Source: a virus (Duplodnaviria > Heunggongvirae > Uroviricota > Caudoviricetes). Taken from it: DNA of 42,922 nucleotides. The notes under the pieces were generated by a model. The model was not told where the DNA came from and ran no database searches. It worked only from the letters and a program-made list of their open reading frames with translations. Positions 5,083 to 41,908 of the stretch are shown here, in pieces. Numbering within the stretch: position 1 is the stretch's first letter; the number at the start of each line of letters is the position of its first letter. Position numbers and translations under genes: made by a program. The DNA lies in the IMG/VR virus record IMGVR_UViG_2728369185_000014; one strand, written 5' to 3'.

Positions 5083-5154
5083 GGTGTGCTCCTTATTTAT
5101 ACATAACGAAAAACGCCTCGAGTGAAGCGTAATTGGTATGCGGTAACGCCGCGC

Positions 5155-18352: not shown

Positions 18353-18411
18353 AGTCAGAGATAACAATCAACTAATACTGTTTTGTTGATTTTTGCTTGT
18401 AATTGGCGTTC

Positions 18412-18421
18412 NNNNNNNNNN
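18412..18421. other. Assembly gap (10 N)
   Basis: Run of n characters between ylcG and Q. Confidence 0.99.
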
Positions 18422-18443
18422 CCTGATTTTGTGGAGAAAGTTG

Positions 18444-18800: not shown

Positions 18801-19994
18801 AAAATAAAATAGATTTACTGCCGATTTTTCAAAAAAGACTGGGAACTGTTTATATCCAACGTAAATAAGGCCTCCATAAAACATGGCTGATGCGAGATAT
18901 TTAACAGTTCTCATCCTTTTTTTAGCTTTATCAATCAAACCTGTAATGCTACTCTTAATACTATCTGCATTATCTTTGATTTCTTTATTTTCTTCAAACT
19001 TTAAATACTTATCGAAAGCGGACTCCACTCGAGAACGTAAGTTGTCGAATGTTTCATTGAATATCTCAATAGAAATGTAATTGACTTTTTTTATCATCCA
19101 AAGTCCTGCGATAATCAATATTGCTTCGGTTGTTTCATTAGCCTTCACTAAGCCACCAGCTGCTATTAATGCACCGGGAATAGTCAATGCTTTTGTCTGA
19201 TTAGATGATATGAATTCGTTAATTTTACTCGTGAACTCAAGATTTTTCTCATCGAGTTCGTTAAGAATTTTATTTACAGAAAACCTCTTTGTGTAAATCT
19301 CATATAGTTCATCATATTTTTTCCTGACGAGTTCAGTAGAGTTAAGCAAGTCAAAGAAATTGAACGTACCATTTGCTTTAAATACTTCGTTTATGGCTGA
19401 GCGTATAACGAGCTTGCGCTCGCTTTTGTGTAAATCATTGATTTTTATTGTGTCGAGAAGCTCCTTTATAATTTCATATTTAAGAGACGAGTTCGATAAG
19501 CGATTAATCTCGCTATATTGTAAAAAATGCGTGAGTTCGACTGTATAACTTTTGTCTTCATTGGTGAAAAATAAGACAGAGCAGTCACTGTTATGATGAT
19601 CAGCAATTAATGAAAGGATATCTTTCCACATAAAGAAAATATGGATTTTTTCGATGCTTTCATTCTTAGAAGTAGGGAGTATTAACGGCGTTCCGATGAT
19701 ATAATTTTTCGGAAGAGCGTTTTGGGTGTTTACTCTAGACCAAAAAGACTCAACATTCTCATAAATTATAGCATCATCCCAAGATGAAGCTTGGCGATCT
19801 AGCCAAATTTCATTATTTTCGATGCAGGTTGTTGCCTTTTTATAACCTATAGATTGTAACAGTCTAATTATTTCAGAACTATTTACAATAACAATGCTTT
19901 CTTCAAGACTTATGACAGTGTAGTAGCCCTCAACTCTGCTTGAGGCTCCGTTAATAATCTGCGCTAATCTTGATAAGTCATCAGCAATTGTCAT
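18780..19994 (-). CDS. Uncharacterised protein with C-terminal transmembrane helices (404 aa), second gene of the Q-S cassette
   Basis: AT-rich ORF; hydrophobic segments near the C-terminus (ALTIPGALIAAGGLV, AILIIAGLWMI, YLASAMFYGGLIYVGY); its 3' end overlaps the Q 3' end convergently. Confidence 0.55.
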   Translation of the reverse strand: MTIADDLSRLAQIINGASSRVEGYYTVISLEESIVIVNSSEIIRLLQSIGYKKATTCIENNEIWLDRQASSWDDAIIYENVESFWSRVNTQNALPKNYIIGTPLILPTSKNESIEKIHIFFMWKDILSLIADHHNSDCSVLFFTNEDKSYTVELTHFLQYSEINRLSNSSLKYEIIKELLDTIKINDLHKSERKLVIRSAINEVFKANGTFNFFDLLNSTELVRKKYDELYEIYTKRFSVNKILNELDEKNLEFTSKINEFISSNQTKALTIPGALIAAGGLVKANETTEAILIIAGLWMIKKVNYISIEIFNETFDNLRSRVESAFDKYLKFEENKEIKDNADSIKSSITGLIDKAKKRMRTVKYLASAMFYGGLIYVGYKQFPVFFEKSAVNLFYFLCHTIS

Positions 19995-19996
19995 TA

Positions 19997-21172
19997 TTAG
20001 CTGTCTCTATATCTTTTGAGTTCATCATAATTTGCCTGACTCAATTTTATCACAATTTCGCATTTGTTGTCAGTGAGAATTACAGGCTTATTTGACTTTT
20101 CGTCTCCAATAGCTCCACGCATTATTTTCAACTTAAAATTATTGTCGTTATCTGCCACTTCAATTGTAAGCGCGCTTTCAGCTGCTTTAGGAGTTGGTTC
20201 AAATTGAGGGTCAATCTGGAAACCATTAAGATTAACAAAATCGACAAACGTTCCCTTACATTTGTGTGAATCAGTCAGGCATGAGTCAATTATTTTTGAA
20301 ATATCCTCTATCTTAACGGACTTATTTCCGTGTTTATCTTTTGATTTTTTTTCCAGTAAGGATTTAACTTCATTGTCAATAGTATCACGCAGTACACGAC
20401 CGAGTGAGTTTTTACTAGCAAAAATATCTATAGCACTGAATAATTGCTGAATGCTTCTTTTATTGTCCGAATCATGTCGGCAACCTAATGAGTCTTTGAA
20501 AAAATCGCTTTTAGATTTACCTTGCAAGAAATGTACATATGAGTCACCCTTGTTTTCTGGATAACTGGCTTCGAATAAAGTTAAATCGAACATCGCAGCC
20601 TGCCGTAAGGCATCGGTATTAATTGGATTTAATCTTGTTGGGGTCAACTTATCCGAATCAAAGTCATAGGCGCTTTGTTTATCAACCATTACGATTAGAA
20701 GTTTCCCCAAATCCTCTGGTTCGGTAGACTTATAGTGGATGAAAACAACGCTCCCCCCCTGAAGTTGGGCAACTCTCGATTCGTTATTAGCATTATGTTT
20801 AAGCTTCTCTATTATAGCTCTAGATAAATCAATGAATTCATTATTCTTATTAATGTATTTTTTTAGGATCGTAGGAATGGATGAAGGGTTGTGATCTGAG
20901 TCTAGGAAGTTATGAAATTTGTTTTTTCGGCTAAATTTTTTCTCAATTCTGGTTATGAATTCAGATGTGACTTCATTTTTTAGATCCCAAACTTCACCTA
21001 ATCGATAATCAAATGCTCTTGAATCATTTTTTTCAAGATTTGCTGTTACAGCACCAATAGGAAAGTACGATTGTTTGCCCAGCACTACAACATGAGGCGT
21101 GGCACCGCATTTATCGCAAGCTACAGTTGGGTCGTCAAGAACATTGCCACATTCTAAACAAGTTATATCCAT
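19997..21172 (-). CDS. Zinc-ribbon protein with a possible NdpA/YejK-like nucleoid-associated domain (391 aa), first gene of the Q-S cassette
   Basis: N-terminal CxxC...CxxC (CLECGNVLDDPTVACDKCG); central ...GGSVVFIHY...YVHFLQGKSKSDFF... resembles the YejK/NdpA family as I recall it; 2-nt gap to the downstream ORF. Confidence 0.55.
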   Translation of the reverse strand: MDITCLECGNVLDDPTVACDKCGATPHVVVLGKQSYFPIGAVTANLEKNDSRAFDYRLGEVWDLKNEVTSEFITRIEKKFSRKNKFHNFLDSDHNPSSIPTILKKYINKNNEFIDLSRAIIEKLKHNANNESRVAQLQGGSVVFIHYKSTEPEDLGKLLIVMVDKQSAYDFDSDKLTPTRLNPINTDALRQAAMFDLTLFEASYPENKGDSYVHFLQGKSKSDFFKDSLGCRHDSDNKRSIQQLFSAIDIFASKNSLGRVLRDTIDNEVKSLLEKKSKDKHGNKSVKIEDISKIIDSCLTDSHKCKGTFVDFVNLNGFQIDPQFEPTPKAAESALTIEVADNDNNFKLKIMRGAIGDEKSNKPVILTDNKCEIVIKLSQANYDELKRYRDS

Positions 21173-24596: not shown

Positions 24597-28277
<3,681 letters not shown>

Positions 28278-28297
<20 letters not shown>

Positions 28298-29597
28298 TCT
28301 CCCGCATATTGCCAGCATGGCCTTTAATGAGCCGCTGATGCTTGAACCCGCCTATGCGCGGGTTTTCTTTTGTGCGCTTGCAGGCCAGCTTGGGATCAGC
28401 CGCCTGACGGATGCGGTGTCCGGCGACAGCCTGACTGCCCAGGAGGCACTCGCGACGCTGGCATTATCCGGTGATGATGACGGACCACGACAGGCCCGCA
28501 GTTATCAGGTCATGAACGGCATCGCCGTGCTGCCGGTGTCCGGCACGCTGGTCAGCCGGACGCGGGCGCTGCAGCCGTACTCGGGGATGACCGGTTACAA
28601 CGGCATTATCGCCCGTCTGCAACAGGCCGCCAGCGACCCGATGGTGGACGGCATTCTGCTCGATATGGACACGCCAGGCGGAATGGTGGCGGGGGCATTT
28701 GACTGCGCTGACATCATCGCCCGTGTGCGTGACATAAAACCGGTATGGGCGCTGGCCAACGACATGAACTGCAGTGCAGGTCAGCTGCTTGCCAGTGCCG
28801 CCTCCCGGCGTCTGGTCACGCAGACCGCCCGGACAGGCTCCATCGGCGTCATGATGGCTCACAGTAATTACGGTGCTGCCCTGGAGAAACAGGGCGTGGA
28901 AATCACGCTGATTTACAGCGGCAGCCATAAGGTGGATGGCACTCCTTACAGCCATCTTCCGGATGACGTCCGGGAGACACTGCAGTCCCGGATGGACGCA
29001 ACCCGCCGGATGTTTGCGCAGAAGGTGTCGGCATATACCGGCCTGTCTGTGCAGGCTGTGCTGGATACCGAGGCTGCAGTGTACAGCGGTCAGGAGGCCA
29101 TTGATGCCGGACTGGCTGATGAACTTGTTAACAGCACCGATGCGATCACCGTCATGCGTGATGCACTGGATGCACATAAATCCCGTCTCTCAGGAGGGCG
29201 AATGACCAAAGAGACTCAATCAACAACTGTTTCAGCCACTGCTTCGCAGGCTGACGTTACTGAGGTGGTGCCAGCGACGGAGGGCGAAAACGCCAGCGCG
29301 GCGCAGCCGGACGTGAACGCGCAGATCACTGCAGCGGTTGCGGCAGAAAACAGCCGCATTATGGGGATCCTCAACTGTGAGGAGGCTCACGGACGCGAAG
29401 AACAGGCGCGCGTTCTGGCAGAAACCCCCGGTATGACCGTGGAAACGGCCCGCCGCATTCTGGCCGCAGCACCACAGAGTGCACAGGCGCGCAGTGACAC
29501 TGCGCTGGATCGTCTGATGCAGGGTGCACCGGCACCGCTGGCTGCAGGTAACCCGGCATCTGATGCCGTTAACGATTTGCTGAACACACCAGTGTAA
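28278..29597 (+). CDS. C: Head protease/scaffold protein C
   Basis: 439 codons from an internal GTG (VTAELRNLPHIASMAFNEPLML...), matching lambda C; the track ORF has an upstream extension overlapping B. Confidence 0.9.
29202..29597 (+). CDS. nu3: Scaffolding protein Nu3 (in-frame C-terminal product of C)
   Basis: Internal ATG preceded by GGAGGG; the 131-aa product (MTKETQSTTVSATASQ...) matches lambda Nu3. Confidence 0.75.
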   Translation: MTKETQSTTVSATASQADVTEVVPATEGENASAAQPDVNAQITAAVAAENSRIMGILNCEEAHGREEQARVLAETPGMTVETARRILAAAPQSAQARSDTALDRLMQGAPAPLAAGNPASDAVNDLLNTPV

Positions 29598-29606
29598 GGG
29601 ATGTTT

Positions 29607-29939
29607 ATGACGAGCAAAGAAACCTTTACCCATTACCAGCCGCTGGGCAACAGTGACCCGGCTCATACCGCAACCGCGCCAGGCGGATTGAGTGCGAAAG
29701 CGCCTGCAATGACCCCGCTGATGCTGGACACCTCCACCCGTAAGCTGGTTGCGTGGGATGGCACCACCGACGGTGCTGCCGTTGGCATTCTTGCTGTTGC
29801 TGCTGACCAGACCAGCACCACGCTGACGTTCTACAAGTCCGGCACGTTCCGTTATGAGGATGTGCTCTGGCCGGAGGCTGCCAGCGACGAGACGAAAAAA
29901 CGGACCGCGTTTGCCGGAACGGCAATCAGCATCGTTTAA
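29607..29939 (+). CDS. D: Head decoration protein D
   Basis: 110 aa [27 protein letters not shown]..., matching lambda D. Confidence 0.9.
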
Positions 29940-29994: not shown

Positions 29995-30239
29995 ATGTCG
30001 ATGTACACAACCGCCCAGCTGCTGGCGGCAAATGAGCAGAAATTTAAGTTTGATCCGCTGTTTCTGCGTCTCTTTTTCCGTGAGAGCTATCCCTTCACCA
30101 CGGAGAAAGTCTATCTCTCACAAATTCCGGGGCTGGTAAACATGGCGCTGTACGTTTCGCCGATTGTTTCCGGTGAGGTTATCCGCTCCCGTGGCGGCTC
30201 CACCTCTGAATTTACGCCGGGATATGTCAAGCCGAAGCA
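29995..30239 (+). pseudogene. E: Major capsid protein E, 5' fragment (codons 1-82) cut by an insertion
   Basis: MSMYTTAQLLAANEQKFKFDPLFLRLFF...TPGYVKPKH matches the lambda E N-terminus, then diverges into 9 unrelated codons and a stop at 30270. Confidence 0.9.
30230..30239 (+). repeat. Left copy of a 10-bp direct repeat AGCCGAAGCA (putative att core)
   Basis: The same 10-mer is at the right junction (41118..41127); both copies lie exactly where E homology is lost and regained; placed by hand. Confidence 0.7.
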
Positions 30240-30402
30240 CTTAGCATGGCTTTCTGAGGCTTTCGTGTAGTTGCTGGTTTTTACACTTAATCTTTTGATA
30301 ATAAAGAATAAGTTTATCTGGTGCTTTCACTGAATTTTCCTCGTTATCTGTGTGTTGCAATCATCTCTGTATTGCAGCTTGTATTGCTTTTTGGGGCTAA
30401 AA

Positions 30403-31638
30403 ATGGCTGGCGAGAACAAACTGAGCGACAAAGCGCTTAAAGGATATCTGGGGAAACCCAGAGAAAAGCAGATCACCATTGCTGATGGAAAGGGGCTTTC
30501 TATTCGTGTGAGTACTAAAGGGGCTGTGAGCTTTGTTTTCTTCTACAGGTTAGCAGGTGGCCGGGCTGCTCCGGTCTGGCTAACGTTGGGTAAATATCCT
30601 GATATGTCACTCAAACAGGCAAGGGAAAAGCGCGACGAGTGCCGTGGTTGGTTGGCTGACAAACGTGATCCGCGTATCCAGATTAAGATTCAGGCTGAAG
30701 AACGCTTAAAGCCGGTCACTGTGGAGGATGCACTAAATTACTGGTATGAAAATTACTGTAAGGTGCGTCGTAAAACTCATGCTGTAACGCTTGGCAGATT
30801 TCGAAAGCATATCTTTCCCTATATCGGTCATTTGCCCGTAAATGACACTCACCTATATGAATGGCTGGACTGTTTTGACCGAATTAAACGTAATGCACCA
30901 GTTATGGCGGCGTATGTTTTTTCTGACACTAAATTAGCTCTTCGTTTTTGTCGGGTACGCCAGTACGCGACGTGTGATGCTTTAAAGGATTTGCGCATGA
31001 GTGATGTGGGGCAGATTGCAGGTAAGCGGGATCGGGTTCTGGATGAAGCCGAACTCGGCCAGCTCTGGAAGGCAATTTTTGTCGAGCCTGATTTAAAACT
31101 AATGTCTGAATACACGCGAAAAATGTTTGTGCTTTGTACAGTATTTGGATGTCGAATGAGTGAAGCCCGATTATCAGAATGGAGCGAATGGGATCTCGAA
31201 AGTTGGGTTTGGACTGTACCAAAAGATCACTCAAAAACTGGTGTTGAAATCGTCAGACCAGTACCTGAAATTCTACGACAGTGGGTAACGGATGTTCACG
31301 AAGAGACAAAACATACTGGTTATGTGCTGGGAAGTCTGCGAATTAGAGAAAGCGTAAGCAAGATTGGGGGGAAAATCGGTAAACGTTTGGGCCATGAAAA
31401 ACAATGGTCACTACACGACCTTAGAAGAACGCTATCTACTCATCTAAGTGATCTCGGTGTTGAATTTTATGTAGTAGAACAACTGTTAGGCCATGCGCTA
31501 CCTGGCGTGGCAGGTGTTTACAACCGGAGTAAGTTTATGGCTAAAAAACTGGATGCTCTGGAACTCTGGACTACATATCTCAATAGCATCGCAGGTGCTG
31601 ATTCAAAAGTGACAATCCTCAAACAAAAGGTTGGTTAA
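30403..31638 (+). CDS. int: Tyrosine integrase (P4-family type) of the inserted element
   Basis: 411 aa from the internal ATG; N-terminal arm-binding-type region and a C-terminal ...HDLRRT...LLGH...GVYNRS region typical of tyrosine recombinases; first gene inside the left junction. Confidence 0.85.
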   Translation: MAGENKLSDKALKGYLGKPREKQITIADGKGLSIRVSTKGAVSFVFFYRLAGGRAAPVWLTLGKYPDMSLKQAREKRDECRGWLADKRDPRIQIKIQAEERLKPVTVEDALNYWYENYCKVRRKTHAVTLGRFRKHIFPYIGHLPVNDTHLYEWLDCFDRIKRNAPVMAAYVFSDTKLALRFCRVRQYATCDALKDLRMSDVGQIAGKRDRVLDEAELGQLWKAIFVEPDLKLMSEYTRKMFVLCTVFGCRMSEARLSEWSEWDLESWVWTVPKDHSKTGVEIVRPVPEILRQWVTDVHEETKHTGYVLGSLRIRESVSKIGGKIGKRLGHEKQWSLHDLRRTLSTHLSDLGVEFYVVEQLLGHALPGVAGVYNRSKFMAKKLDALELWTTYLNSIAGADSKVTILKQKVG

Positions 31639-31639
31639 C

Positions 31640-31867
31640 ATGAAAAAAATGGCAATTGTTGATAAAAAGGGTCTGGAGTACATTCCTAACATTGACCGAA
31701 TGATCCGTGAGAAAGAATGTCGGGAGCTAACCACTCTTGCGAACAGCACACGCTGGAAGCTGGAGAAGGAAGGAAAATTTCCTAAGCGGATCAAGATTGG
31801 TTCCACTGCTGTTGCATATCGTCTTTCAGAAGTGCAGGCATGGATTCGAGGTGAGTGGGTAGTTTAA
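31640..31867 (+). CDS. alpA: AlpA-family transcriptional regulator/excisionase
   Basis: 75 aa starting 2 nt after the int stop; ...RELTTLANSTRWKLEKEGKFPKRIKIGSTAVAYRLSEVQAWI... fits the AlpA/Vis winged-helix family. Confidence 0.7.
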   Translation: MKKMAIVDKKGLEYIPNIDRMIREKECRELTTLANSTRWKLEKEGKFPKRIKIGSTAVAYRLSEVQAWIRGEWVV

Positions 31868-31936
31868 ATTATCTCAGAATAAAATATTATGAATTACTGA
31901 TTTGAGAATTTGTACTCAAATCAGTAATAACATTCT

Positions 31937-32473
31937 TTATAAGAGATTAAATCCAAATAAAGAGTAATCATATACCGGGGTGCATTGCATTCCACTGAAT
32001 ATGCTGATGTTTTTTTCTGTTTCTATCCTTTTTTCAATAAGTTGTTGTATATTTTTACAGTACAATTTGTGTGTGATGTTATTATCGTAAGCCTGATATA
32101 GCAACGTCAATGTTGACGCTAGGAAACATACAGATAAAATTAAAGTAACATATGCGGTTTTTTTATTTTTTGTCCATGATCTATTTGTTTGTGAAATATA
32201 AAGAATTCTGATGTGGATAATGGTGAGAGACAATAGCAGGCCACTCAATAAAATAAGTATTGGGTTTGCGTATTTTATTAATGGTTGAGAGCAAAAAACT
32301 ATTATAGCTCCTGTGACTGCGTATGAGAAAAAGGAGTAATTAAACTTCTTACTCCTTCTCTCAAGTATTTTAATTTCATCTTGTGTGGGGGTTTTAGATG
32401 CCTCTAATATAAGTTTATTGAATGTTTCTGTTATCTTGTTTTTTGTGTTTGTGGCTATTTTTTTTAGATTCAT
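31937..32473 (-). CDS. Accessory membrane protein (178 aa, about three TM helices)
   Basis: Very AT-rich ORF with hydrophobic segments (AVTGAIIVFCSQPLI, ILILLSGLLLSLTIIHI, YVTLILSVCFLASTLTLL); no homologue recognised. Confidence 0.5.
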   Translation of the reverse strand: MNLKKIATNTKNKITETFNKLILEASKTPTQDEIKILERRSKKFNYSFFSYAVTGAIIVFCSQPLIKYANPILILLSGLLLSLTIIHIRILYISQTNRSWTKNKKTAYVTLILSVCFLASTLTLLYQAYDNNITHKLYCKNIQQLIEKRIETEKNISIFSGMQCTPVYDYSLFGFNLL

Positions 32474-32823
32474 AGCATTCTAACTCCCTTAACTTATTTA
32501 TTACTTTCTCTTTATGATAAGAGAGGGGAATGACTTGGTAAAGTGATTTGTCATTAATAATGATAATCCTTGCGATAAATATTTCTGCAAGTTATTTATC
32601 TGTTTGTTGCTATCTTGTTAAGCGTTGGGTGTGGTTTATGTTTGGAGCGACTTTATTTAATCGTGATTTTATGGATTTATATTTATATCCTGTAAGATAA
32701 GCGCATGTTAGTTCAGGAGTAGTGTCAGATAAAATTATTCGGAGTAGAACTACCTTTTCTGTTTATTGCCAGTATTTACATAGCAATGCGCCGTAGTTAC
32801 TCACATCACGGCGCTGATACTAA

Positions 32824-33126
32824 TTATTCAGATTCTTTGGCTTTACGCCGCTGGAGTTCTTCACGAGCGACGGCTACGAGTTGCCCGATTTCCTCCGCTG
32901 CCTTGATGCCGATTTGTTCGACCTTAGCTAAGGCATCCAGTGAAGACACGAGGGGATTTTCTCCGCTTCCTTCTGCCTGGCGGCGGGCGATCTCACCGCG
33001 CATGGCGGTTACTATGAATCCGGCGTTGCTCTCGCCGTCCAGTTTTACGGATTCCATGCCCTCCATAACATCGTGGGGAACCCTGATCGTTGTCATTTGC
33101 GATTTTGCATTTTTGTATACAGACAT
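32824..33126 (-). CDS. Ribbon-helix-helix-type DNA-binding protein (100 aa)
   Basis: N-terminal ...MTTIRVPHDVMEGMESVKLDGESNAGFIVTAMR... has the pattern of CopG/Arc-type RHH domains; divergent from the rightward operon. Confidence 0.5.
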   Translation of the reverse strand: MSVYKNAKSQMTTIRVPHDVMEGMESVKLDGESNAGFIVTAMRGEIARRQAEGSGENPLVSSLDALAKVEQIGIKAAEEIGQLVAVAREELQRRKAKESE

Positions 33127-33334
33127 AGTTAATCACCAATTTGTTATGTGTATATCACTATACACAAAAGTGATATATAAAAACACTTGCAATGTATATC
33201 ACCACAATATAATGTATATCTCACATTATGGTCGCTATGTATCTCACAATGATCGATTCATAAAAACGACGAAACCCGGCAGTGCGCGAACACTAACCGG
33301 GCTTCTAACCAAACCGTTAAACGAGGTAACGATT
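33127..33334. promoter_or_regulatory. Divergent promoter region with TGTATATCAC/GTGATATA repeats
   Basis: AT-rich intergenic segment with at least four copies of TGTATATC(A/T)C in both orientations, between the RHH gene and the rightward operon. Confidence 0.45.
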
Positions 33335-33700
33335 ATGGCTGGAACACAGCATACCCAAACTCACCCTAAATTTATATACACCTTTCTGGCACTACACCAC
33401 GACCGCATGGCAGATGGAGCAACTACGGTACATGTAGCCGCTGACACGCTGGTTGATGCCCGCAAGATGGTTAAGGAGATGGGCTATACTGCGGCTTTCT
33501 GGAAAGGGCGTGAAGAAAACACGCTGTTTATTCAGAAATGCGAAAACAATTTCATCTGGCGTTTTATCGCCCTGAGTACGGCACAACCGCGCGTGATTCA
33601 CATCGTGGCCACCAGCGAACAGGAAGCCCGCCAGCAATCCCCGGCTGGTTGCGTGAGGGTATTCGCCGCCCGTATTCGTCAGGAGGTATGCCGTGCTTAA
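33335..33700 (+). CDS. Hypothetical protein (121 aa), first gene of the island rightward operon
   Basis: Internal ATG of the long track ORF; the upstream part of that ORF is antisense to the RHH gene. Confidence 0.45.
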   Translation: MAGTQHTQTHPKFIYTFLALHHDRMADGATTVHVAADTLVDARKMVKEMGYTAAFWKGREENTLFIQKCENNFIWRFIALSTAQPRVIHIVATSEQEARQQSPAGCVRVFAARIRQEVCRA

Positions 33701-33878
33701 AACCTTCCGTGTATTTGCCCGAGCGGTTAACCCACGAGGCCACACAATTGGTATCACTCAGAACGTGAAGGCTGTTAATGTTCAGACGGCTATTGCTGTG
33801 GTGAGAAGCGAATCATCAGAATATGGCTTATCACAAGTCATTATTTCAGCAGTGTATGAATTAAAAGAGGTGCATTAA
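33693..33878 (+). CDS. Hypothetical small protein (61 aa)
   Basis: Track ORF overlapping the previous stop; same operon. Confidence 0.4.
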   Translation: MLKTFRVFARAVNPRGHTIGITQNVKAVNVQTAIAVVRSESSEYGLSQVIISAVYELKEVH

Positions 33879-34069
33879 TGCAGGAAATTACATTACACGA
33901 AGCCGCTGAACGTGCGCACCAGACAGAAATTATTTGCCGCCTTCTTGAGGTATACCCGAACAAAATTACAGATGCTGATATATCCGCACTGGCGAGCCTA
34001 CTGGCGCGTCTTTCGGGAAGTGTCGCTAGTTTTTTGATTGAGGAAGAAAGTAAGCTGGTGGGGGATTAA
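33878..34069 (+). CDS. Hypothetical small protein (63 aa)
   Basis: Track ORF with stop/start overlap to its neighbours. Confidence 0.4.
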   Translation: MQEITLHEAAERAHQTEIICRLLEVYPNKITDADISALASLLARLSGSVASFLIEEESKLVGD

Positions 34070-34291
34070 ATGAATACAGAACGGGAAGTCTTTTTTAAAT
34101 TGTTAGCATGTGCAGAAAGTTCATTAACTTTAAATAATTCAGCAAAAGCAATATTAAATATGTGGCTTGATTGCATAAATGACAATGAAGATGCAAATAT
34201 TGCTTATGGCCTGTTGTCACTTATTGATGAAGCAGCAGAAAAACTCAATGACGCAATAAATAGTGCCCTGTTATCAAATAAGTCGAGTTAA
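34070..34291 (+). CDS. Hypothetical small protein (73 aa)
   Basis: Track ORF, AT-rich, contiguous in the operon. Confidence 0.4.
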   Translation: MNTEREVFFKLLACAESSLTLNNSAKAILNMWLDCINDNEDANIAYGLLSLIDEAAEKLNDAINSALLSNKSS

Positions 34292-34308
34292 GTCGAGGAA
34301 TAAATAAT

Positions 34309-34608
34309 ATGGAAATGAAAAATTCTGGCTTTATTGCCAGCGGCCCCGCTCGGCCTGAATTTATGAACGGCGATATTTACCGCGATAAATACGGCGGCAC
34401 GGTAACGATTAAAGGCGTGGCAGAACGGCGCATCACTTACCGCCGTGAGGGGTATAGCTATGACTGCGTGATGCCTGTTTATCAGTTCCGGCGTGATTTT
34501 TCCCTGGTATATGCCGCACCTCGCAGTAAGCCCACCAGCAGGGAAAAAGCGCGGGGAAACATCCAGAAAATGAAAAGCATGATTAACGCATTCAGGGGCA
34601 AAAAATGA
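34309..34608 (+). CDS. Hypothetical basic protein (99 aa)
   Basis: Track ORF whose stop overlaps the primase start. Confidence 0.4.
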   Translation: MEMKNSGFIASGPARPEFMNGDIYRDKYGGTVTIKGVAERRITYRREGYSYDCVMPVYQFRRDFSLVYAAPRSKPTSREKARGNIQKMKSMINAFRGKK

Positions 34609-36356
34609 AACTGGCACCGAACTTAAAAAAACAGCCACGCGACAGACTGACAGAGGTAATCATCTTTGCAGGTAGTGATGCGTGGAGCCATGCGAAAGAG
34701 TGGCAGGAATGGGCGGGTAAACATATTGCCGCCGACGATGTGCCGCCTGTCGTGCTGGCTGATGAGCAACTGAAAAACATCATCGATTACCGGATCATTG
34801 ATGAAGATCGTCAGTGTGTGCGTGTTTACCGCGCAGGACATATCACAGAGCACAGCATGACGCAGATTGTTACGTTACTGGCTGTGGCTGGAGTGAAGAC
34901 CGTACACGAATACGCGGGGATTACTGACACCAGCCCCGTGGATTTATCCGACCAGTTGCCGCGACTCAAAGAGGAATGCGAGCGTGGGGAAAGTCTGGTG
35001 CTTAATCTTCCGACGAAGCAAAAGGCGCAACTTTCACAGATGGCAGACAGTGAACGTGCACAACTACTTGCCGATCGCTTTGATGGTGTGTGTGTTCATG
35101 CAGAAAGTGAAATCGTCCACGTATGGCGCGGCGGGGTATGGTGTCCGGTCAGCACAATGGAGCTGAGCCGCGAAATGGTGGCGATCTATTCAGAGCACAG
35201 GGCCACGTTCAGCAAACGTGTAATCAATAACGCCGTGGAAGCGTTAAAAGTTATTGCCGACCCCATGGGGGAGCCGTCCGGTGATTTACTACCGTTCACT
35301 AATGGTGTGCTTAACCTGAAAACGGGGGATTTTTCTCCGCACTTACCGGAGCACTGGAGCACCACGCACAATGGCATTGAGTACACGCCACCAGTAGCAG
35401 GGGAAAACATCCGCGATAATGCGCCAAATTTCCATAAATGGCTTGAACATGCTGCAGGAAAAGACCCGCGCAAGATGATGCGTATATGTGCCGCGTTATA
35501 CATGATTATGGCGAACCGCTACGACTGGCAGATGTTCATTGAGGCCACCGGAGACGGGGGAAGCGGTAAGAGTACATTTACCCATATTGCCACCCTGCTT
35601 GCTGGCAAACAGAACACCGTAAGCGCAGAGATGACATCACTCGATGATGCAGGAGGGCGCGCGCAGGTTGTCGGGAGTCGTCTTATCGTCCTTGCCGATC
35701 AGCTGAAATATACGGGGGAAGGCACGGGCATCAAGAAAATCACGGGAGGCGATCCCGTTGAAATTAACCCGAAATATGAGAAGCGATTCACGACGATAAT
35801 AAGGGCGGTGGTACTGGCAACCAATAACGACCCGATGATCTTTACCGAACGGGCCGGAGGTGTGTCACGCCGTCGGGTGATTTTCCGGTTCGACAACATT
35901 GTAAGGGAGGACGAAAAAGACAAGGAATTACCGGAAAAGATAGCGGCAGAAATCCCCGTAATTATCCGCCGCTTGCTGGCTAATTTTGCTGACCCTGAAA
36001 AGGCACGGGCTTTATTACTGGAACAGCGTGACGGTGATGAAGCTCTGGCAATAAAGCAGCAAACGGATCCGGTTGTTGAGCTTTGCGCGGCGCTGGAGTT
36101 TCTGGAGGAAGCTCGTGGGCTAATGATGGGCGGTGGTGGTGACACCGTGAAGTACACGACCAGAAACAGCCTTTACCGTGTCTATATGGCCTTCATGGCA
36201 TATACAGGAAAGGGGAAATGTTTGAGCGTGAATGAGTTCGGAAAGGCTATGAGGTCAGCGGCGAAAGTTTACGGATATGAATATATTACGCGAAAAGTTA
36301 AGGGAGTCACGCAGACCAACGCAACGACTACTGATGATTGCGATGCGTTTTTATAA
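34605..36356 (+). CDS. Primase-helicase (P4-alpha/D5-type NTPase)
   Basis: 583 aa with Walker A GDGGSGKST and downstream helicase-like motifs; immediately followed by an iteron array. Confidence 0.8.
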   Translation: MKLAPNLKKQPRDRLTEVIIFAGSDAWSHAKEWQEWAGKHIAADDVPPVVLADEQLKNIIDYRIIDEDRQCVRVYRAGHITEHSMTQIVTLLAVAGVKTVHEYAGITDTSPVDLSDQLPRLKEECERGESLVLNLPTKQKAQLSQMADSERAQLLADRFDGVCVHAESEIVHVWRGGVWCPVSTMELSREMVAIYSEHRATFSKRVINNAVEALKVIADPMGEPSGDLLPFTNGVLNLKTGDFSPHLPEHWSTTHNGIEYTPPVAGENIRDNAPNFHKWLEHAAGKDPRKMMRICAALYMIMANRYDWQMFIEATGDGGSGKSTFTHIATLLAGKQNTVSAEMTSLDDAGGRAQVVGSRLIVLADQLKYTGEGTGIKKITGGDPVEINPKYEKRFTTIIRAVVLATNNDPMIFTERAGGVSRRRVIFRFDNIVREDEKDKELPEKIAAEIPVIIRRLLANFADPEKARALLLEQRDGDEALAIKQQTDPVVELCAALEFLEEARGLMMGGGGDTVKYTTRNSLYRVYMAFMAYTGKGKCLSVNEFGKAMRSAAKVYGYEYITRKVKGVTQTNATTTDDCDAFL

Positions 36357-36364
36357 AAAATGGC

Positions 36365-36615
36365 AATGGTTATCTACCTTGTCTACCTGACTGAAATAAA
36401 ATACTTTTATTTCAATGTATTAATGCAGGTAGATAACTATTTTTCACTGTCTACCTGTTATCTACCTTATCTACCCATTTTTGTAGACAGGTAAGGAGAC
36501 GGGTAGAGATGAGGTAGACAGCTATTTGGGGCTGTCTACCTCCCTGAAACCCGCGCCATTACTGGCCTGATAACTAATCAGGTAGACAAGGTAGACAAGG
36601 TGGTGGTGCACAAAA
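36365..36615. repeat. Iteron array (GGTAGACA/TGTCTACC, at least 10 copies) with an AT-rich spacer: putative island origin
   Basis: Repeated 8-9-mers in both orientations (TTGTCTACC, AGGTAGATA, CAGGTAGACAAGGTAGACAAGG...) flanking an A/T-rich segment directly after the primase gene. Confidence 0.7.
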
Positions 36616-36645
36616 AACTTTTTAAACGAGGGGGTAAAAATAAAA

Positions 36646-36888
36646 ATGCACACATCAGGAAAACTGAACAAACATATAAAGCCACATTACCGCGCCCTTG
36701 ATATGGCTGAACACTGGCTAAGGGTGGCGATTAAGGCAATAGACCGCAACGCCGGGGAAGGATACGCGAAAGCACATCCCGAACTGATAAGCGCATTCAT
36801 GACAACGGCGGCTGCAAACTTTGCCACGCTGACCGAACGGGAGATTGCCGAAGCGGAGGAAGTGACAACCATCAATATTAAGTCCTGA
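36646..36888 (+). CDS. Hypothetical protein (80 aa)
   Basis: Track ORF between the origin and ssb. Confidence 0.35.
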   Translation: MHTSGKLNKHIKPHYRALDMAEHWLRVAIKAIDRNAGEGYAKAHPELISAFMTTAAANFATLTEREIAEAEEVTTINIKS

Positions 36889-36899
36889 GAGCAGGCAGC

Positions 36900-37349
36900 A
36901 TGACGGCGCAAATAGCAGCTTACGGGCGGCTGGTGGACGACCCACAGGTAAAACATACCAGCAAGGGAACACCCATGACACTGGCACGGATGGCGGTATC
37001 TTTGCCATGCAGCCAGGCAGATGACGGAACGGCGACGATGTGGTTATCTGTGCTGGCGTTTGGCAGACAAGCCGACGCGCTGGCAAAGCATCACAAAGGC
37101 GAACTCCTGAGCGTGGCGGGTAATATGCAGGTGAGCCAGTGGAGCGGACAGAACGGGGAAACGCGGCAGGGCTGGCAGGTTATCGCAGACAGCGTAATCA
37201 GTGCCAGAACGGTGCGACCGGGCGGCAAAAAAGGTCAACAGGGGCAGGCTACTGATGCACTGAACAGAGCAAAACAACAGGCAGATCAGCAAGGAAGCCA
37301 TCCACCAGTGGGAGATAATGAGCAATGGGGAGATGATATTCCGTTTTAA
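36900..37349 (+). CDS. ssb: Single-stranded DNA-binding protein
   Basis: 149 aa with an OB-fold-like N-terminal region, a Gly/Gln-rich linker and the acidic C-terminal tail ...DDIPF characteristic of bacterial/phage SSB. Confidence 0.75.
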   Translation: MTAQIAAYGRLVDDPQVKHTSKGTPMTLARMAVSLPCSQADDGTATMWLSVLAFGRQADALAKHHKGELLSVAGNMQVSQWSGQNGETRQGWQVIADSVISARTVRPGGKKGQQGQATDALNRAKQQADQQGSHPPVGDNEQWGDDIPF

Positions 37350-37565
37350 ATATTGCCAATAAAAAAGGCCGGAAAAAATATATTTTCCGGCATGCTACAT
37401 AAATCCCGACCAAAGGGAGTGAAGATATTAACACTAATTATCCGCGCTGAAGTTGTCATCCCAAAACTTTATACAACATTGCACTCGGTTGCATGTGTTA
37501 GCATGACAAATATCGGTGATAGCATATATCCACAATTATTTTTAATGAATGTAAAGAGGATGAGT

Positions 37566-38606
37566 ATGGTTGATTTATATTCGCCTGCCCAGCTTGTGCA
37601 GGTGGCTAATGCAGAAGAGGTGCAAAAAAAATTAAATGCATTGTTTACCAGTTTGTTTTTCACTCGCTCGGTAATGTTTGAATCAAGAGACATTATTCTT
37701 GATACAATCGACGATCCAAATATCCCAATTGCAGCGTTTTGTTCTCCTATGGTGGGTAGTAAAGTTTCACGTGACGAAGGGTACGAATCAAAGACAATTC
37801 GTCCAGGCTATATGAAGCCGAAAAGCAGCATTGATCCAAATAAGTTAGCTGTGCGCCCTGCTGGTGTATCACCTGAGCAATACAATGCTTTTGGAGCGCG
37901 TAATATTAAAGTTAAACAGGCGATTGTAAATCAGGCTAAAGCTATTCGTGCACGTATTGAATGGCTTGCCGTTCAGGCAATCACAACGGGGAAAAATATC
38001 ATTGAGGGCGATGGCATTGAACGCTATGAACTGGACTGGAATATAAAACCACAAAATATTATCACGCAGTCCGGCGGTGCTGAGTGGTCAGGTAAGGATA
38101 AAGAAACTTTTGATCCAAATGATGATATTGAGAGCTACGCAGAATTTAGTGAGGGCGTCACTAATATCATCATTATGGGCGGTAATGTATGGAAGAAATA
38201 CCGTTCATTCAGAGCGATAAAAGAGGCTCTGGATACCCGTCGTGGTTCTAATTCCGAACTGGAAACGGCCCTTAAAGACCTTGGTGATTCGGTGAGTTTT
38301 AAAGGGTATATGGGCGATGTTGCGATTGTTGTATACAGCGGGCGTTATACCGACGAGGACGGAACTGAAAAACATTTCCTTGATCCTGATTTGATGGTGC
38401 TTGGCAATACGGCTCTTCAGGGGATTGTCGCCTATGGCGGTATTCAGGATCCGGAGCTAATCCGAATGGGGCTGACTAAAGCCGAACTTGCACCGAAAAA
38501 CTATATTGTGCCTGGTGATCCGGCTATTGAATATGTGCAGACACATTCAGCACCACAGCCAATACCGGCCCGCATCAATCGTTTTGTTACCGTTCGCATT
38601 GGCTAA
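37566..38606 (+). CDS. Major capsid protein homologue (lambda E-like)
   Basis: Alignable to lambda E along its length (e.g. ITQSGGAEWSGKDKETFDPNDDIESYA vs ITQSGGTEWSKRDKSTYDPTDDIEAYA; DTRRGSNSELETALKDLG vs DTRRGSHSELETAVKDLG; GDVAIVVYSG); start at the ATG 6 nt after AAGAGG. Confidence 0.8.
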   Translation: MVDLYSPAQLVQVANAEEVQKKLNALFTSLFFTRSVMFESRDIILDTIDDPNIPIAAFCSPMVGSKVSRDEGYESKTIRPGYMKPKSSIDPNKLAVRPAGVSPEQYNAFGARNIKVKQAIVNQAKAIRARIEWLAVQAITTGKNIIEGDGIERYELDWNIKPQNIITQSGGAEWSGKDKETFDPNDDIESYAEFSEGVTNIIIMGGNVWKKYRSFRAIKEALDTRRGSNSELETALKDLGDSVSFKGYMGDVAIVVYSGRYTDEDGTEKHFLDPDLMVLGNTALQGIVAYGGIQDPELIRMGLTKAELAPKNYIVPGDPAIEYVQTHSAPQPIPARINRFVTVRIG

Positions 38607-38615
38607 GGGGGAGCA

Positions 38616-38957
38616 ATGGCTACTCATTACACTGAACTCATGGCTGGCACTGAAGCACTGGTGACTACGCTGGGGATATTTTCAGCTAATAAAGGGGTAA
38701 TTCCTGCATTTACGCCACTGATGCAGGAAGATGCAACAGGTGCACTGGTGGTATGGGATGGTTCGAGCGTAGGTAAAGCGGTTTATGTTTCCGCTGTACA
38801 AATCGACACCGCGAAAAAAACACAGGCTCAGGTCTATAAGACAGGTGTCTTAAATGTTGATGCTCTGAACTGGCCTGAGTCTGTAAAAGAACTGTCAGTA
38901 AAGATTGCAGCGTTTGTTGGCTCAGGTATTTCTGTTCAGCCGCTGGCTCGTGTGTAA
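38616..38957 (+). CDS. Head decoration protein homologue (lambda D-like)
   Basis: 113 aa; ...VVWDGSSVGKAVYVSAVQ...AFVGSGISV parallels lambda D ...[18 protein letters not shown]...[10 protein letters not shown]; directly downstream of the capsid homologue, as D precedes E in lambda. Confidence 0.65.
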   Translation: MATHYTELMAGTEALVTTLGIFSANKGVIPAFTPLMQEDATGALVVWDGSSVGKAVYVSAVQIDTAKKTQAQVYKTGVLNVDALNWPESVKELSVKIAAFVGSGISVQPLARV

Positions 38958-38968
38958 AGGGGGATACA

Positions 38969-39352
38969 ATGCAGAATCATTACAATGACCTTAAGCCAAT
39001 TGCCGAAATGATGTATCCGGATCCAGCAGTAGAGGAATTAAAGGCTATTGCTGACAAAATGCGTTTAAGCGAGCGTCTTGTTGATATGAATCAGGTGATG
39101 GAACTTACAACCCTGAGTCGTCGTACACTGCTAAACCTTGAAGCACGTGGAGAGTTCCCCGAACGCGTGCAGGTTACGGAAGGGCGTAAGGCCTGGTATT
39201 TAAGCGAAGTGATCGACTGGATAAACAATATTCCGCGCGCTTCTGAATATTGCCGCGTACCTGTCCCAAAAAAGCCAGATGCGGCGCTATGCCTCAAGAT
39301 TGAGCGTGTACGCCGCAATGCGCGGGATGGTCGCTATAAGCTGATTGGTTGA
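38969..39352 (+). CDS. AlpA/excisionase-like winged-helix protein (127 aa) next to the island cos
   Basis: Central ...MNQVMELTTLSRRTLLNLEARGEFPERVQVTEGRKAWYLSEVIDWI... fits the AlpA/Xis-type HTH; sits immediately upstream of the island cos. Confidence 0.5.
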   Translation: MQNHYNDLKPIAEMMYPDPAVEELKAIADKMRLSERLVDMNQVMELTTLSRRTLLNLEARGEFPERVQVTEGRKAWYLSEVIDWINNIPRASEYCRVPVPKKPDAALCLKIERVRRNARDGRYKLIG

Positions 39353-39379
39353 TGAAATTAGGGCCCGTTCTGGCTGGCG

Positions 39380-39445
39380 GGTCCTTTCCGGCGATCCAGA
39401 ACGTTACGGGGCGGCGACCTCGCGGGTTTTCGCTATTTATGAGCA
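39380..39445 (+). promoter_or_regulatory. Island cos site (cosN 12-mer at about 39408..39419)
   Basis: GGGTCCTTTCCGGCGATCC...TTACGGGGCGGCGACCTCGCGGGTTTTCGCTATTTATGA is nearly identical to the prophage cos at 23840..23900, then diverges. Confidence 0.75.
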
Positions 39446-39568
39446 TTTTTAGGGGACTGGTGGTGGTTTTGTTGTTCGCTATATCTGTATGAATAATAAG
39501 AGAAAAACACAATCAACACACCAACCTGAAACAGTAATTAAGTTGTGGTATCAATGAAATTGCACCTG

Positions 39569-40096
39569 ATGAACAAAAAAAACATGGCAAAAAGTTGCCG
39601 TGTAAGCGCCACTGCGTTCGATAAGTGGGGAGTGATTCCCGTCGAGCGTAAGGGCCGCGAGGCGTTTTATGATGTCGCCAGTGTAATAGATAATCGGGTT
39701 AACAATGCAATCAGCCAGATTACAAACGAAACGGGCGAGATTGATGATGATGAACTCCTACGAGTCAGGATCAGATTGCTGACAGCACAGGCAGAGGCGC
39801 AGGAGCTTAAAAACGAGCGCGAACGCGGCGACGTTATTGATACAGCGTTTTGTATATACGTGCTTTCAAAACTGGCGAGTCAGATTTCTTCAATCATGGA
39901 CAGCCTGCCGCTTGCCATGACAAGGAAGTTTCCCGACATGAAGCCGTCTATGCTGGATGGACTGAAAAAAGAAGTTATCAGAGCCTGTAACGCATGCGCA
40001 AAACTTGACGAAAACATACCGCTGATGCTGTCCGATTATCTGATGGAAACTGCCGGAAACGTACCGGATAAGTTGCAGCTGAATAAAGATAAGTAA
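39569..40096 (+). CDS. Terminase small-subunit paralogue (Nu1-like)
   Basis: MNKKNMAKSCRVSATAFDKWGVIPV... and ...RLLTAQAEAQELKNERERGDVIDTAFCIYVLSKLASQISSIMDSLPLAMTRKFPD... parallel lambda Nu1; start uncertain (the track ORF begins at 39545). Confidence 0.7.
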   Translation: MNKKNMAKSCRVSATAFDKWGVIPVERKGREAFYDVASVIDNRVNNAISQITNETGEIDDDELLRVRIRLLTAQAEAQELKNERERGDVIDTAFCIYVLSKLASQISSIMDSLPLAMTRKFPDMKPSMLDGLKKEVIRACNACAKLDENIPLMLSDYLMETAGNVPDKLQLNKDK

Positions 40097-40107
40097 CGTA
40101 GTACGCT

Positions 40108-40389
40108 ATGACTGAATCCGAAATACTGCGATTAATCCGCCGTGCTTGTGGAATCAGCAAGCAGCATGACGAACAGGCCACGCAGCCGGACAGCGTGATC
40201 GCCGAAAATTACGCGCGTGTTGTTGCTGATGTGATGCGCCGTGATGGTATTGAGCTTAACGGCGTGGATATGCGCGACATACGGATCAGATTCCTTGAGT
40301 TGCTGGCATACCGTCGCCGTTCTCAACAACGAAGGGAGAGCGCGAAAAACACTTATCAGTGGAAGAAGCCGGAACGGTTGCGGCGGTAG
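40108..40389 (+). CDS. Hypothetical basic protein (93 aa)
   Basis: Track ORF downstream of the Nu1-like gene. Confidence 0.35.
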   Translation: MTESEILRLIRRACGISKQHDEQATQPDSVIAENYARVVADVMRRDGIELNGVDMRDIRIRFLELLAYRRRSQQRRESAKNTYQWKKPERLRR

Positions 40390-41117
40390 ATTCCTGATAT
40401 TCAGGAAAACCACGAATCCGGGGGTTTTACTGGCGCGGTGTACACGGTGGAACGTATAGCGTTACCTGACTTATTGCATTGTAAAAAGTTGAAAGGCACG
40501 GCCTGTAAGATGGGATGTTGTGAGTAGTTTAAAGCTACCCGCAAATTCTTTCGTTGTGCTGGCACAGGCGGTTAAACCGTCGGTAACTGGATAATCCCCA
40601 CTGGGGGAAAAGCTGGCTACATCCCTCACATCTGAGGACTGATAACGCAAAATTGCGTTGGCTGGCAGAGTGCAAATTTGCACGATGGCCTAACCCATTG
40701 ATTCTTTCGAAAACCCCCATTGGGGGAGAACGGGGGAATAAACCTGACTCATTGATTTTTCCACAATCCTTAATTTGAGGAAGCTGGATAGTTGCACTAC
40801 CCAAAAAGTGCAGTACCCACATAGCTGCTTAATAGCGTTTATTTTTTCCGCACACCTCAAATCTGAGAAGGCCGGAATGATGACATGGCAGGATTATGAT
40901 TCCTTGATTTCAAGGAGTCCTCCAGTGTGAAAATGAAATTATCTGGGCTGGTGGGTGAGTTGCTGATCTGCAACTCGGCTATGAAACTTAATAATCGAAC
41001 AGCATGTAAATTCATTTCTGTGTATTGCAGCATGTATTGCAACATAGTCATTCTGGTAGAGATTATGCTCTATTTTTCCTCTTATATCATTCACATACTT
41101 ACGTCATTGACTCATGT

Positions 41118-41127
41118 AGCCGAAGCA
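41118..41127 (+). repeat. Right copy of the 10-bp direct repeat AGCCGAAGCA (putative att core)
   Basis: Identical to 30230..30239; E codons resume immediately after it; placed by hand. Confidence 0.7.
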
Positions 41128-41908
41128 TGAGGTGAATCCGCAGATGACCCTGCGTCGCCTGCCGGATGAAGATCCGCAGAATCTGGCGGACCCGGCTTAC
41201 CGCCGCCGTCGCATCATTATGCAGAACATGCGTGACGAAGAGCTGGCCATTGCCCAGGTCGAAGAGATGCAGGCAGTTTCTGCCGTGCTTAAGGGCAAAT
41301 ACACCATGACCGGTGAAGCTTTCGATCCGGTTGAGGTGGATATGGGCCGCAGTGCGGCCAACAACATCACGCAGTCCGGCGGCACGGAGTGGAGCAAGCG
41401 TGACAAGTCCACGTATGACCCGACCGACGATATCGAAGCCTACGCGCTGAACGCCAGCGGAGTGGTGAATATCATCGTGTTTGATCCGAAAGGCTGGGCG
41501 CTGTTCCGTTCCTTCAAAGCCGTCAAGGAGAAGCTGGATACTCGTCGCGGCTCTCATTCCGAGCTGGAGACAGCGGTGAAAGACCTGGGCAAAGCGGTGT
41601 CCTACAAGGGGATGTATGGCGATGTGGCCATCGTCGTGTATTCCGGACAGTACGTGGAAAACGGCGTCAAAAAGAACTTCCTGCCGGACAACACGATGGT
41701 GCTGGGGAACACTCAGGCACGCGGTCTGCGCACCTATGGCTGCATTCAGGATGCGGACGCACAGCGCGAAGGCATTAACGCCTCTGCCCGTTACCCGAAA
41801 AACTGGGTGACCACCGGCGATCCGGCGCGTGAGTTCACCATGATTCAGTCAGCACCGCTGATGCTGCTGGCTGATCCTGATGAGTTCGTGTCTGTACAAC
41901 TGGCGTAA
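41128..41908 (+). pseudogene. E: Major capsid protein E, 3' fragment (codons 83-341)
   Basis: ...EVNPQMTLRRLPDEDPQNLADPAYRRRRIIMQNMRDEELAIAQ...DPDEFVSVQLA matches the rest of lambda E and is in frame with the 5' fragment once the insert is removed. Confidence 0.9.

Follow-up and report, generated by a model that had tools for sequence, protein, structure and literature searches.

The 42,922-nucleotide stretch of DNA analyzed here (IMG/VR record IMGVR_UViG_2728369185_000014; hereafter the window) is a lambda-like prophage whose capsid gene E is interrupted by a satellite element, and this element carries a capsid gene (E') and a decoration gene (D') of its own (Table 1). The element is almost certainly a helper-embedded phage-inducible chromosomal island (HE-PICI) of the group E:Phage_cap_E:80, with E' and D' as the intact capsid and decoration genes of its late zone. 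Both this arrangement and the capsid gene have been in print since 2023, and capsid and decoration homologues of phage-inducible chromosomal islands (PICIs) since 2018; the finding is correct but not new. The present analysis adds that E' and D' belong to a satellite-only lineage, that strong purifying selection acts on this lineage, that E' and D' always stand side by side, and that the window copy has its own cos and its own small terminase (TerS'). As judged from sequence comparison, the lineage is almost certainly confined to satellites and does not extend to phages. We tentatively prefer, at close to an even chance, the reading that E' and D' play a real but redundant structural role, forming a full-size shell with the portal, scaffold/protease and tails of the helper.

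The satellite capsid and decoration proteins

The first-pass annotation had described the 346-aa product as a full-length homologue of lambda E and the 113-aa product as a homologue of D, both clearly diverged from the helper's own proteins, and had proposed profile searches against the capsid and gpD families. Each of these statements was borne out. Residues 2-346 of E' aligned with residues 1-340 of the reconstructed helper E with 42% identity, 59% positives and 11 gap positions (E=4e-85), and Pfam's Phage_cap_E profile matched E' over its positions 3-327 of 329 (1.7e-41; 142.8 bits, where the cut-off is 22.9). D' was 38% identical to the helper D (E=1e-17) and was matched by the profile HDPD (4.4e-15; 56.3 bits against a cut-off of 29.1). 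Among solved structures, E' matched PDB 3BQW (3e-121) and lambda gpE (7VI9, 1e-77), and D' matched SHP of phage 21 (1TD0, 6e-16) and lambda gpD (1C5E/7VII, 1e-11). The lambda proteins and phage 21 SHP fall in the same Pfam families, have the same lengths and show the same D-E pairing, but lambda gpE and gpD are only 38-42% identical to E' and D', and the gene order is D-E in lambda and E'-D' in the satellite. PDB 3BQW has the length of c1499, the capsid homologue of the island EcCICFT073, and agrees with it at every residue of the alignment shown. The fold of E' would already be fixed by this 56%-identical crystal structure together with the lambda gpE structures. Models of a monomer do not decide the T number of a shell, and nothing that we read in the sequence speaks for a change of T number.

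E' is preceded by a Shine-Dalgarno (SD) sequence, AGAGGA, 8 nt upstream. D' starts 9 nt past the E' stop codon, and E', D' and the following gene for a second AlpA-family protein (alpA2) follow one another at intervals of 9-11 nt, and each has an SD of its own. A possible alternative E' start was noticed at 37560..37568, where ATG AGT ATG would give MSMVDLY..., resembling MSMYTT... of lambda E; the annotated ATG at 37566 is preferred by the SD spacing.

The divergence of E' from E lies mostly in the N-terminal ~150 aa, where identity in 50-aa windows was 22-32%, as against 56-80% in the middle of the protein; these identities were measured against the helper-type half of the chimeric sequence P0040, described below. 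We take the diverged N-terminal region to contain the N-arm and the E-loop, which make the gpD contacts in the lambda capsid structures. The N-terminal divergence of E', together with the co-diverged D', suggests that the two proteins form a matched pair. A co-diverged decoration protein would be sensible only if the threefold sites of the expanded shell are made by E'.

The element and its site in helper gene E

The lambda-like prophage of the window comprises an integrase gene (1..1143, minus strand), a cos near 23830-23902, the genes Nu1, A, W, B, C and D, and, from 41911 on, FI and FII. The insert of 10,888 bp is flanked by 10-bp direct repeats of AGCCGAAGCA. When position 30239 was joined to 41128, an E gene of 341 codons was regained, reading ...KPKHEVNPQ... 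as in lambda E. In the uninterrupted E genes of ~3,000 E. coli genomes the match to the junction probe ended exactly at 30239 (5,426 complete genomes searched), and the junction from E into the insert was matched by 172 of the 5,426. Identical (100%) copies of the element are present in three RefSeq genomes, and relatives of ~97-98% identity are common. The two relatives that were opened (L001 and L002) both lie inside gene E of a lambda-like prophage, and a co-oriented insertion at the same place in gene E was found in these and in two further loci (L006 and L007). The window integrase is 83-88% identical to the integrases of the E-embedded elements of Cedecea and Kosakonia. Since the satellite is seated in helper E, E' is the sole complete capsid gene of the composite until excision.

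HE-PICIs were described by Tommasini, Mageeney and Williams in 2023 (PMC10111431), with Eco567.11capE of E. coli NRG857c as the type element and 201 instances at E:Phage_cap_E:80. According to these authors, the elements have a 10-bp identity block and a doubled motif, tgTGTATTGCantgTGTATTGCa, which stands on both sides of the attP centre, 81±2 bp upstream and 132±2 bp downstream, and the element "bears its own capsid gene" (PMC10111431). The window element shares with this group the site in gene E (near codon 80 in terms of the Phage_cap_E profile, the helper gene being cut after codon 81), the orientation, and the doubled TGTATTGC motif with its spacing. Its block AGCCGAAGCA is listed for several members, whereas Eco567 itself has AACCCAAGCA, and its attL flank, cttagcatggctttctgaggctttcgtgtagttgctgg..., is identical to that in file 5 of the PMC10111431 supplement. 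Eco567.11capE also has the same int-alpA-...-primase-SSB-capsid order (SSB, single-stranded DNA-binding protein) and an icd-type lambda-like helper. It is, however, said to be without terS and to have 258 bp in common with the helper cos region, whereas the window element has TerS' and a 73-bp likeness only. A decoration gene is unmentioned in the main text of PMC10111431, whereas D' is recorded in the window element.

A satellite-only lineage under purifying selection

Among 50,697 phage records, the best full-length match of E' was lambda E, at 42.4% identity, and the best match of D' reached 40%. In a database of 5.8 billion proteins the identities to E' were bimodal, with one group at 50-100%, another at or below 43%, and a gap between them; the genera of the upper group include Escherichia, Salmonella, Cedecea, Scandinavium, Serratia, Edwardsiella, Lelliottia and Enterobacter. 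Neighbour-joining trees separated the satellite-type from the phage-type proteins with a bootstrap support of 200/200 when built without the chimeric cluster P0040; with P0040 the support was 44/100, because P0040 is a chimera of E and E'.

P0040 comes from a 4432-bp metagenome contig in ENA (L012; 2801-3829) with the gene order B-C-D-(E/E' hybrid)-D'-alpA2. Over residues 1-~200 it shares 96-100% identity with helper-type E, and over residues 250-342 it shares 98-100% with E'. The crossover falls in a 135-nt zone that matches both genes; in the window the longest exact match between E and E' is only 17 nt. P0040 is either a true recombinant of E and E' or an assembly chimera.

The E'D' cassette was found in 394 of the 5,426 complete E. 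coli genomes (~7%) and in at least eight other genera. Contexts were gathered by a peptide-pattern scan of genome contigs (4 loci, narrow patterns) and by tracing protein-database matches to their contigs. All ten contexts examined were islands running from an integrase to E'-D', with a replication gene 5' of E' in nine of them; in L005 (Superficieibacter) the window proteins gave no integrase or primase match. The site is gene E in E. coli, Cedecea and Kosakonia, the neighbourhood of phoQ in CFT073, and that of fis in Serratia and Lelliottia, and the Kluyvera island has a different integrase. In Edwardsiella tarda (L008, 765-12681) an HE-PICI with E' and D' lies inside the helper portal gene, and the helper D and E are intact downstream. 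This arrangement indicates that the satellite capsid pair is independent of the interruption of E. Whatever the integration site, D' directly follows E' in every context. In L004-L007 the gene after D' is a homologue of alpA2 (64-72% identity), and L009 and L011 likewise have an AlpA-family gene at this place.

Tommasini et al. (PMC10111431) suggested that E' is a backup copy, standing in for the interrupted helper E before excision. The window fits this suggestion in that the helper's E is broken in two, which leaves E' as the only intact capsid gene. The E'-D' pair is, however, also carried by satellites that do not interrupt E, namely those at phoQ, at fis and in the Edwardsiella portal gene, and the E junction is held by only 172 of the 394 cassette-bearing E. 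coli genomes. A D' of its own would also be needless for a backup of E, since the helper D is intact here. The constancy of the pair across integration sites argues against backup of E as a general role, which we consider quite unlikely.

E' showed a ratio of nonsynonymous to synonymous substitution (dN/dS) of 0.087 between the window and L001 (dS 0.115) and of 0.029 between L004 (Kluyvera) and L005, and the values for D' were 0.07-0.17. In most intergeneric pairs the synonymous sites were saturated while the proteins were still 80-87% identical. All 11 E'-D' copies examined, from 9 genera, were intact. The lineage is thus under strong purifying selection. These values bear on a second reading offered by the first-pass annotation, in which E' and D' are decaying remnants of a phage head module. 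The surrounding helper is indeed partly decayed, with a nonsense codon in its portal gene. All the copies examined, however, are intact open reading frames (ORFs) with SD sequences, dN/dS lies far below 1 (~0.03-0.09 where dS is measurable), E' and D' are syntenic at unrelated sites, and the cassette is conserved across the E. coli genomes and the other genera counted above. Intact copies and purifying selection exclude the remnant reading for practical purposes; what probability it keeps is minute.

Two of the islands deserve separate mention. In Lelliottia sp. (L010, 5117-12752), a PICI by fis carries E' and D' together with a gpC-like protease (S49) and a head-completion protein (Phage_HCP), and is one step nearer to capsid autonomy than the window element. 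In Salmonella enterica (L011, GCA_005980655.1, 3526-15165), a satellite with int, a DUF4222 gene, an AAA_25 replication protein, E', D' and an AlpA-like gene is flanked by baseplate/tail-fibre genes and a tube gene of a contractile-tail prophage. A C-terminal sheath fragment (Phage_sheath_1, Phage_sheath_1C) just downstream suggests that this satellite is inserted in the sheath gene. The 14 HE-PICI sites of the 2023 paper were described there as lambda late-gene cognates (PMC10111431); the sheath-gene site may be an additional type.

Packaging module

The first-pass annotation had found no portal, protease or large terminase in the element, and had concluded that it relies on the helper for these functions and for the tail. 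Both points hold. No portal, protease/scaffold, large terminase (TerL), connector, tail or lysis gene was found within the 10.9-kb element among the ORFs and the Pfam/PHROG matches, and the only ORFs of more than 200 aa in 30240..41117 are those of the integrase, the primase-helicase and E'. A satellite without portal, protease/scaffold, TerL and tail genes must obtain these from its helper.

The element does have a cos and a small terminase. The 12-nt cohesive-end sequence of lambda, GGGCGGCGACCT, is present in the satellite cos at 39409-39420. The likeness to the helper cos extends over 73 bp and ends where cosB would start, the cosB side being divergent. TerS' is 38% identical to the helper Nu1, with the C-terminal half better conserved; this half of Nu1 is the gpA-binding part (PMC6739421). 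No match to RppA (c1503) was detected by BLASTP among the four downstream ORFs tested (80-aa, AlpA2, TerS' and 93-aa).

L001, which represents the commoner E. coli variant, is without TerS' and has ~206 bp (83%) in common with the cos region of its own helper, in agreement with the statement in PMC10111431 that 11capE has no terS. Its right end (18083..20237) contains a 438-aa ORF on the opposite strand with no Pfam or PADLOC match. Close relatives thus appear to use at least three packaging routes, namely a helper-like cos, their own cosB and TerS', or Rpp.

Comparison with characterized satellites

The closest characterized relatives of E' and D' are the capsid homologue c1499 and the decoration homologue c1500 of EcCICFT073, reported by Fillol-Salom et al. 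in 2018 (PMC6092414). c1499 is 56% identical to E' and c1500 54% identical to D', so that both are nearer to the satellite proteins than are the helper E (42%) and D (38%). In EcCICFT073 the two genes likewise follow the replication module, a downstream gene for a 93-aa protein is shared at 73% identity, and the helper is, as here, of lambda type. EcCICFT073 lies beside phoQ and is not embedded, whereas the window element is embedded in helper E. It retargets the helper TerS by RppA, whereas the window element has its own TerS' and no Rpp homologue among the ORFs tested, and the gene after D' is unrelated in the two islands.

In EcCICFT073, the packaged DNA was all phage-sized, and deletion of c1499 or c1500 left transfer unchanged and did not relieve the interference with lambda; the authors report no c1499 phenotype (PMC6092414). 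Interference and packaging specificity are due to RppA, which retargets the helper TerS (PMC6739421). Our literature searches turned up no later functional study of HE-PICIs or of the gpE/gpD homologues of PICIs.

The silent deletions could also mean that E' and D' owe their retention to some role other than building the satellite particle (for example, modulation of helper assembly or host-defence sensing), or that they are near-neutral passengers of the late zone. The absence of a c1499/c1500 phenotype in both transfer and interference accords with this, as does the fact that PICI late zones are dynamic and acquire helper late genes. On the other hand, both genes are under strong purifying selection across genera and are strictly kept as a unit, and their lineage, old and well separated from phage E, is not a recent capture. 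In addition, removing only rppA is enough to bring lambda plating on EcCICFT073 back almost completely, which argues that E' and D' are no notable inhibitors. We regard a role of this kind as unlikely.

The first-pass annotation had proposed that E' and D' take the place of the helper's shell proteins and so give a different, possibly smaller capsid. A smaller capsid of this kind would be sized for one or two copies of the 10.9-kb genome, its size being redirected through exchange of the capsid protein. There is precedent in kind for such a capsid. Ccm of SaPIbov5, also a satellite-encoded homologue of the helper's HK97-fold capsid protein in a cos-packaged island, drives the formation of small isometric capsids (PMC6893505), and PmCI172 encodes a capsid homologue and makes small capsids (PMC6092414). 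The element also has its own TerS' and cosB, unlike EcCICFT073, so that packaging by the latter is no proxy for it. Ccm, however, is 23% identical to the helper capsid protein and still requires that protein, and it combines proven size redirection with strong interference and has no partner decoration protein (PMC6893505). Neither small capsids nor helper blocking of the Ccm type was seen for c1499 and c1500, the closest homologues tested; EcCICFT073 packages phage-sized DNA only, and its mutants are without phenotype. Moreover, E' aligns with E nearly gap-free at equal length (only 11 gap positions), and no scaffold-like or Sid/Cpm-like gene is present in the element. Unit length was considered as an argument on capsid size and rejected as uninformative: 10.9 kb fits the T=7 lambda head four times, and hypothetical T=4 and T=3 heads roughly twice and once. 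The proposal of a smaller capsid is therefore not upheld, and we consider it very unlikely.

Capsid-forming PICIs (cf-PICIs) such as EcCIEDL933 resemble the window element in having int, alpA, rep, their own capsid protein and a small terminase. They add a protease, a portal, head-tail connectors, an HNH protein and TerL, and steal only tails, whereas the window element is without all of these. It falls outside the cf-PICIs, since of the head and packaging genes it has only those for the capsid protein, the decoration protein and TerS'.

Proposed function of E' and D'

If E' and D' have the redundant structural role that we prefer, the following course may be envisaged. Upon induction, helper late transcription, the satellite AlpA proteins, or both would switch on the co-oriented operon E'-D'-alpA2. 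E' would assemble on the helper portal (gpB) with the helper protease/scaffold (gpC/Nu3) into a lambda-type shell, and trimers of D', matched to E' and not to helper E, would stabilize the expanded shell. TerS' would bind its own cosB by the lambda-type cosN and recruit the helper gpA, so that the heads would be filled with satellite concatemers, and the helper connectors and tails would finish the particle. The shell would most likely be full size, holding about four 10.9-kb units (43.6 kb); the phage-sized DNA of EcCICFT073 makes full-size heads the default expectation. Once the satellite is excised, E' would be functionally redundant with helper E, and such redundancy would explain why the EcCICFT073 deletions had no laboratory phenotype.

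Several points weigh against this proposal. For the type element, excision was demonstrated by quantitative PCR and sequencing, and no virions were recovered (PMC10111431). The phenotype-free deletions of c1499 and c1500 imply that a structural role would be at best redundant under laboratory conditions. The compatibility of E' with the helper gpB, gpC and Nu3 is assumed. The helper portal gene of the window strain contains a nonsense codon, and this resident helper is, as predicted from its sequence, defective; the window copy would therefore make no particles with the resident helper alone and would require another helper. Finally, the helper of the relative L011 is a contractile-tail prophage, whose tail sheath gene appears to hold the satellite. 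It is worth noting that in the similar composite of APEC E14033 (L001) the portal gene is intact.

A more far-reaching interpretation, which we hold to be possible but doubtful, is that E' and D' constitute a dedicated satellite shell. The island would then be a half-way capsid-forming satellite with its own shell, decoration protein, cos and TerS'. It would steal, at the same doubtful level of confidence, the portal, the protease/scaffold, the large terminase, the connectors and the tail. No better assured is the corollary that the competing E is silenced until excision, so that the first procapsids would be of satellite type and of the same or a smaller size.

Other features of the element and the helper prophage

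The remaining features are collected in Table 1. The element has the properties of a Gram-negative PICI, with four zones (int and alpA; Bro/regulatory; primase and origin; late zone), a size in the range of ~10-15 kb, and no tail or lysis genes. The iterons are dense, both direct and inverted, and lie directly 3' of the primase gene, which is where PICI origins sit (PMC6092414). A scan of 36300-41200 for promoters and terminators gave sites no more numerous than in shuffled sequence, and no E' promoter can be named. Rfam, applied to the whole window at the gathering threshold, matched only the lambda CIII thermoregulator at 5037-5095 and showed no immunity RNA of the C4/isrK type in the element.

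Table 1. Features of the satellite element and of the adjoining helper genes in the window.
Feature	Coordinates	Strand	Basis
Helper portal gene B, in-frame stop at codon 157 (RefSeq 'internal stop')	26696..28300	+	
Helper decoration gene D	29607..29939	+	ORF list, BLASTP, RefSeq
Helper E 5' fragment, codons 1-81, ending ...GYVKPK-H	29995..30239	+	ORF list; att repeat comparison
attL identity block AGCCGAAGCA	30230..30239	.	Direct-repeat comparison; same block in PMC10111431 supplement
Doubled motif TCTCTGTATTGCAGCTTGTATTGC, ~130 bp from att centre	30364..30387	+	Repeat search (family D6); fits HE-PICI motif tgTGTATTGCantgTGTATTGCa at +132±2
Satellite tyrosine integrase	30403..31638	+	Pfam Arm-DNA-bind_3 and Phage_integrase; RefSeq annotation
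AlpA regulator/excisionase	31640..31867	+	Pfam Phage_AlpA 3e-15
Small genes, one of them Icd-like	between AlpA and DUF4222 protein		
DUF4222 protein	34309..34608	+	Pfam
D5_N/DUF5906 primase-helicase	34605..36356	+	Pfam
Iterons TTATCTACCTTGTCTACC, direct and inverted; presumed origin of the satellite	36365..36600	.	Repeat search (D3, D13, D18, I1, I2, I8)
SSB	36900..37349	+	Pfam SSB 1e-14
E', satellite-lineage major capsid protein, 346 aa, intact	37566..38606	+	BLASTP, Pfam, PDB matches
D', satellite-lineage head decoration protein, 113 aa, intact	38616..38957	+	BLASTP, Pfam, PDB matches
alpA2, second AlpA-family helix-turn-helix protein	38969..39352	+	Pfam; PDB 8C3T 1.6e-10
Satellite cos	39377..39449	+	cosQ/cosN part 92% identical to helper cos 23830-23902
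TerS', Nu1-like small terminase	39554..40096	+	Pfam Phage_Nu1 1.4e-24; BLASTP 6e-38; PHROG 57
93-aa conserved PICI protein	40108..40389	+	73% identical to EcCICFT073 homologue
Second doubled TGTATTGC motif copy, ~82 bp from att centre	41017..41040	+	Repeat search (family D6)
attR identity block AGCCGAAGCA	41118..41127	.	Direct-repeat comparison
Helper E 3' fragment	41128..41908	+	ORF list; joining to 30239

The helper prophage carries several genes of separate interest. A homologue of the abortive-infection protein BstA is encoded at 15807..16751 (PADLOC BstA 3.8e-121), adjoining a large serine recombinase gene (13662..15188), in a stretch of low GC content (35-40%). In the immunity region (7427..8733, minus strand), two adjacent genes gave weak matches to PDC-M24A/B, a candidate pair of defence genes (4.7e-10 and 4.8e-4), one of them with DUF1828. 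A second low-GC block (~35%) of two genes lies in the late-regulatory region (18780..21172, minus strand) and encodes a nucleoid-associated protein of the NA37 family (19997..21172) and a protein of 404 aa without a family match.

Implications

Why an Enterobacterales PICI lineage keeps an E/D pair under strong selection, though the only deletions tested were phenotype-free, is a question that was not first raised here. Because the crystal structure 3BQW comes from a member of the lineage and high-resolution structures of the lambda capsid are at hand, the question of what E' and D' do is directly testable. If the two proteins do form a satellite shell, helper-embedding would gain a logic, in that the shell gene of the helper is disabled while the satellite supplies its own. 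A shell dedicated to the satellite would, if real, represent a third route to capsid autonomy, between the classical PICIs and the cf-PICIs. Partial capsid autonomy would in that event have been reached stepwise, from the classical PICI through a PICI with E' and D' (and TerS') to the cf-PICI.

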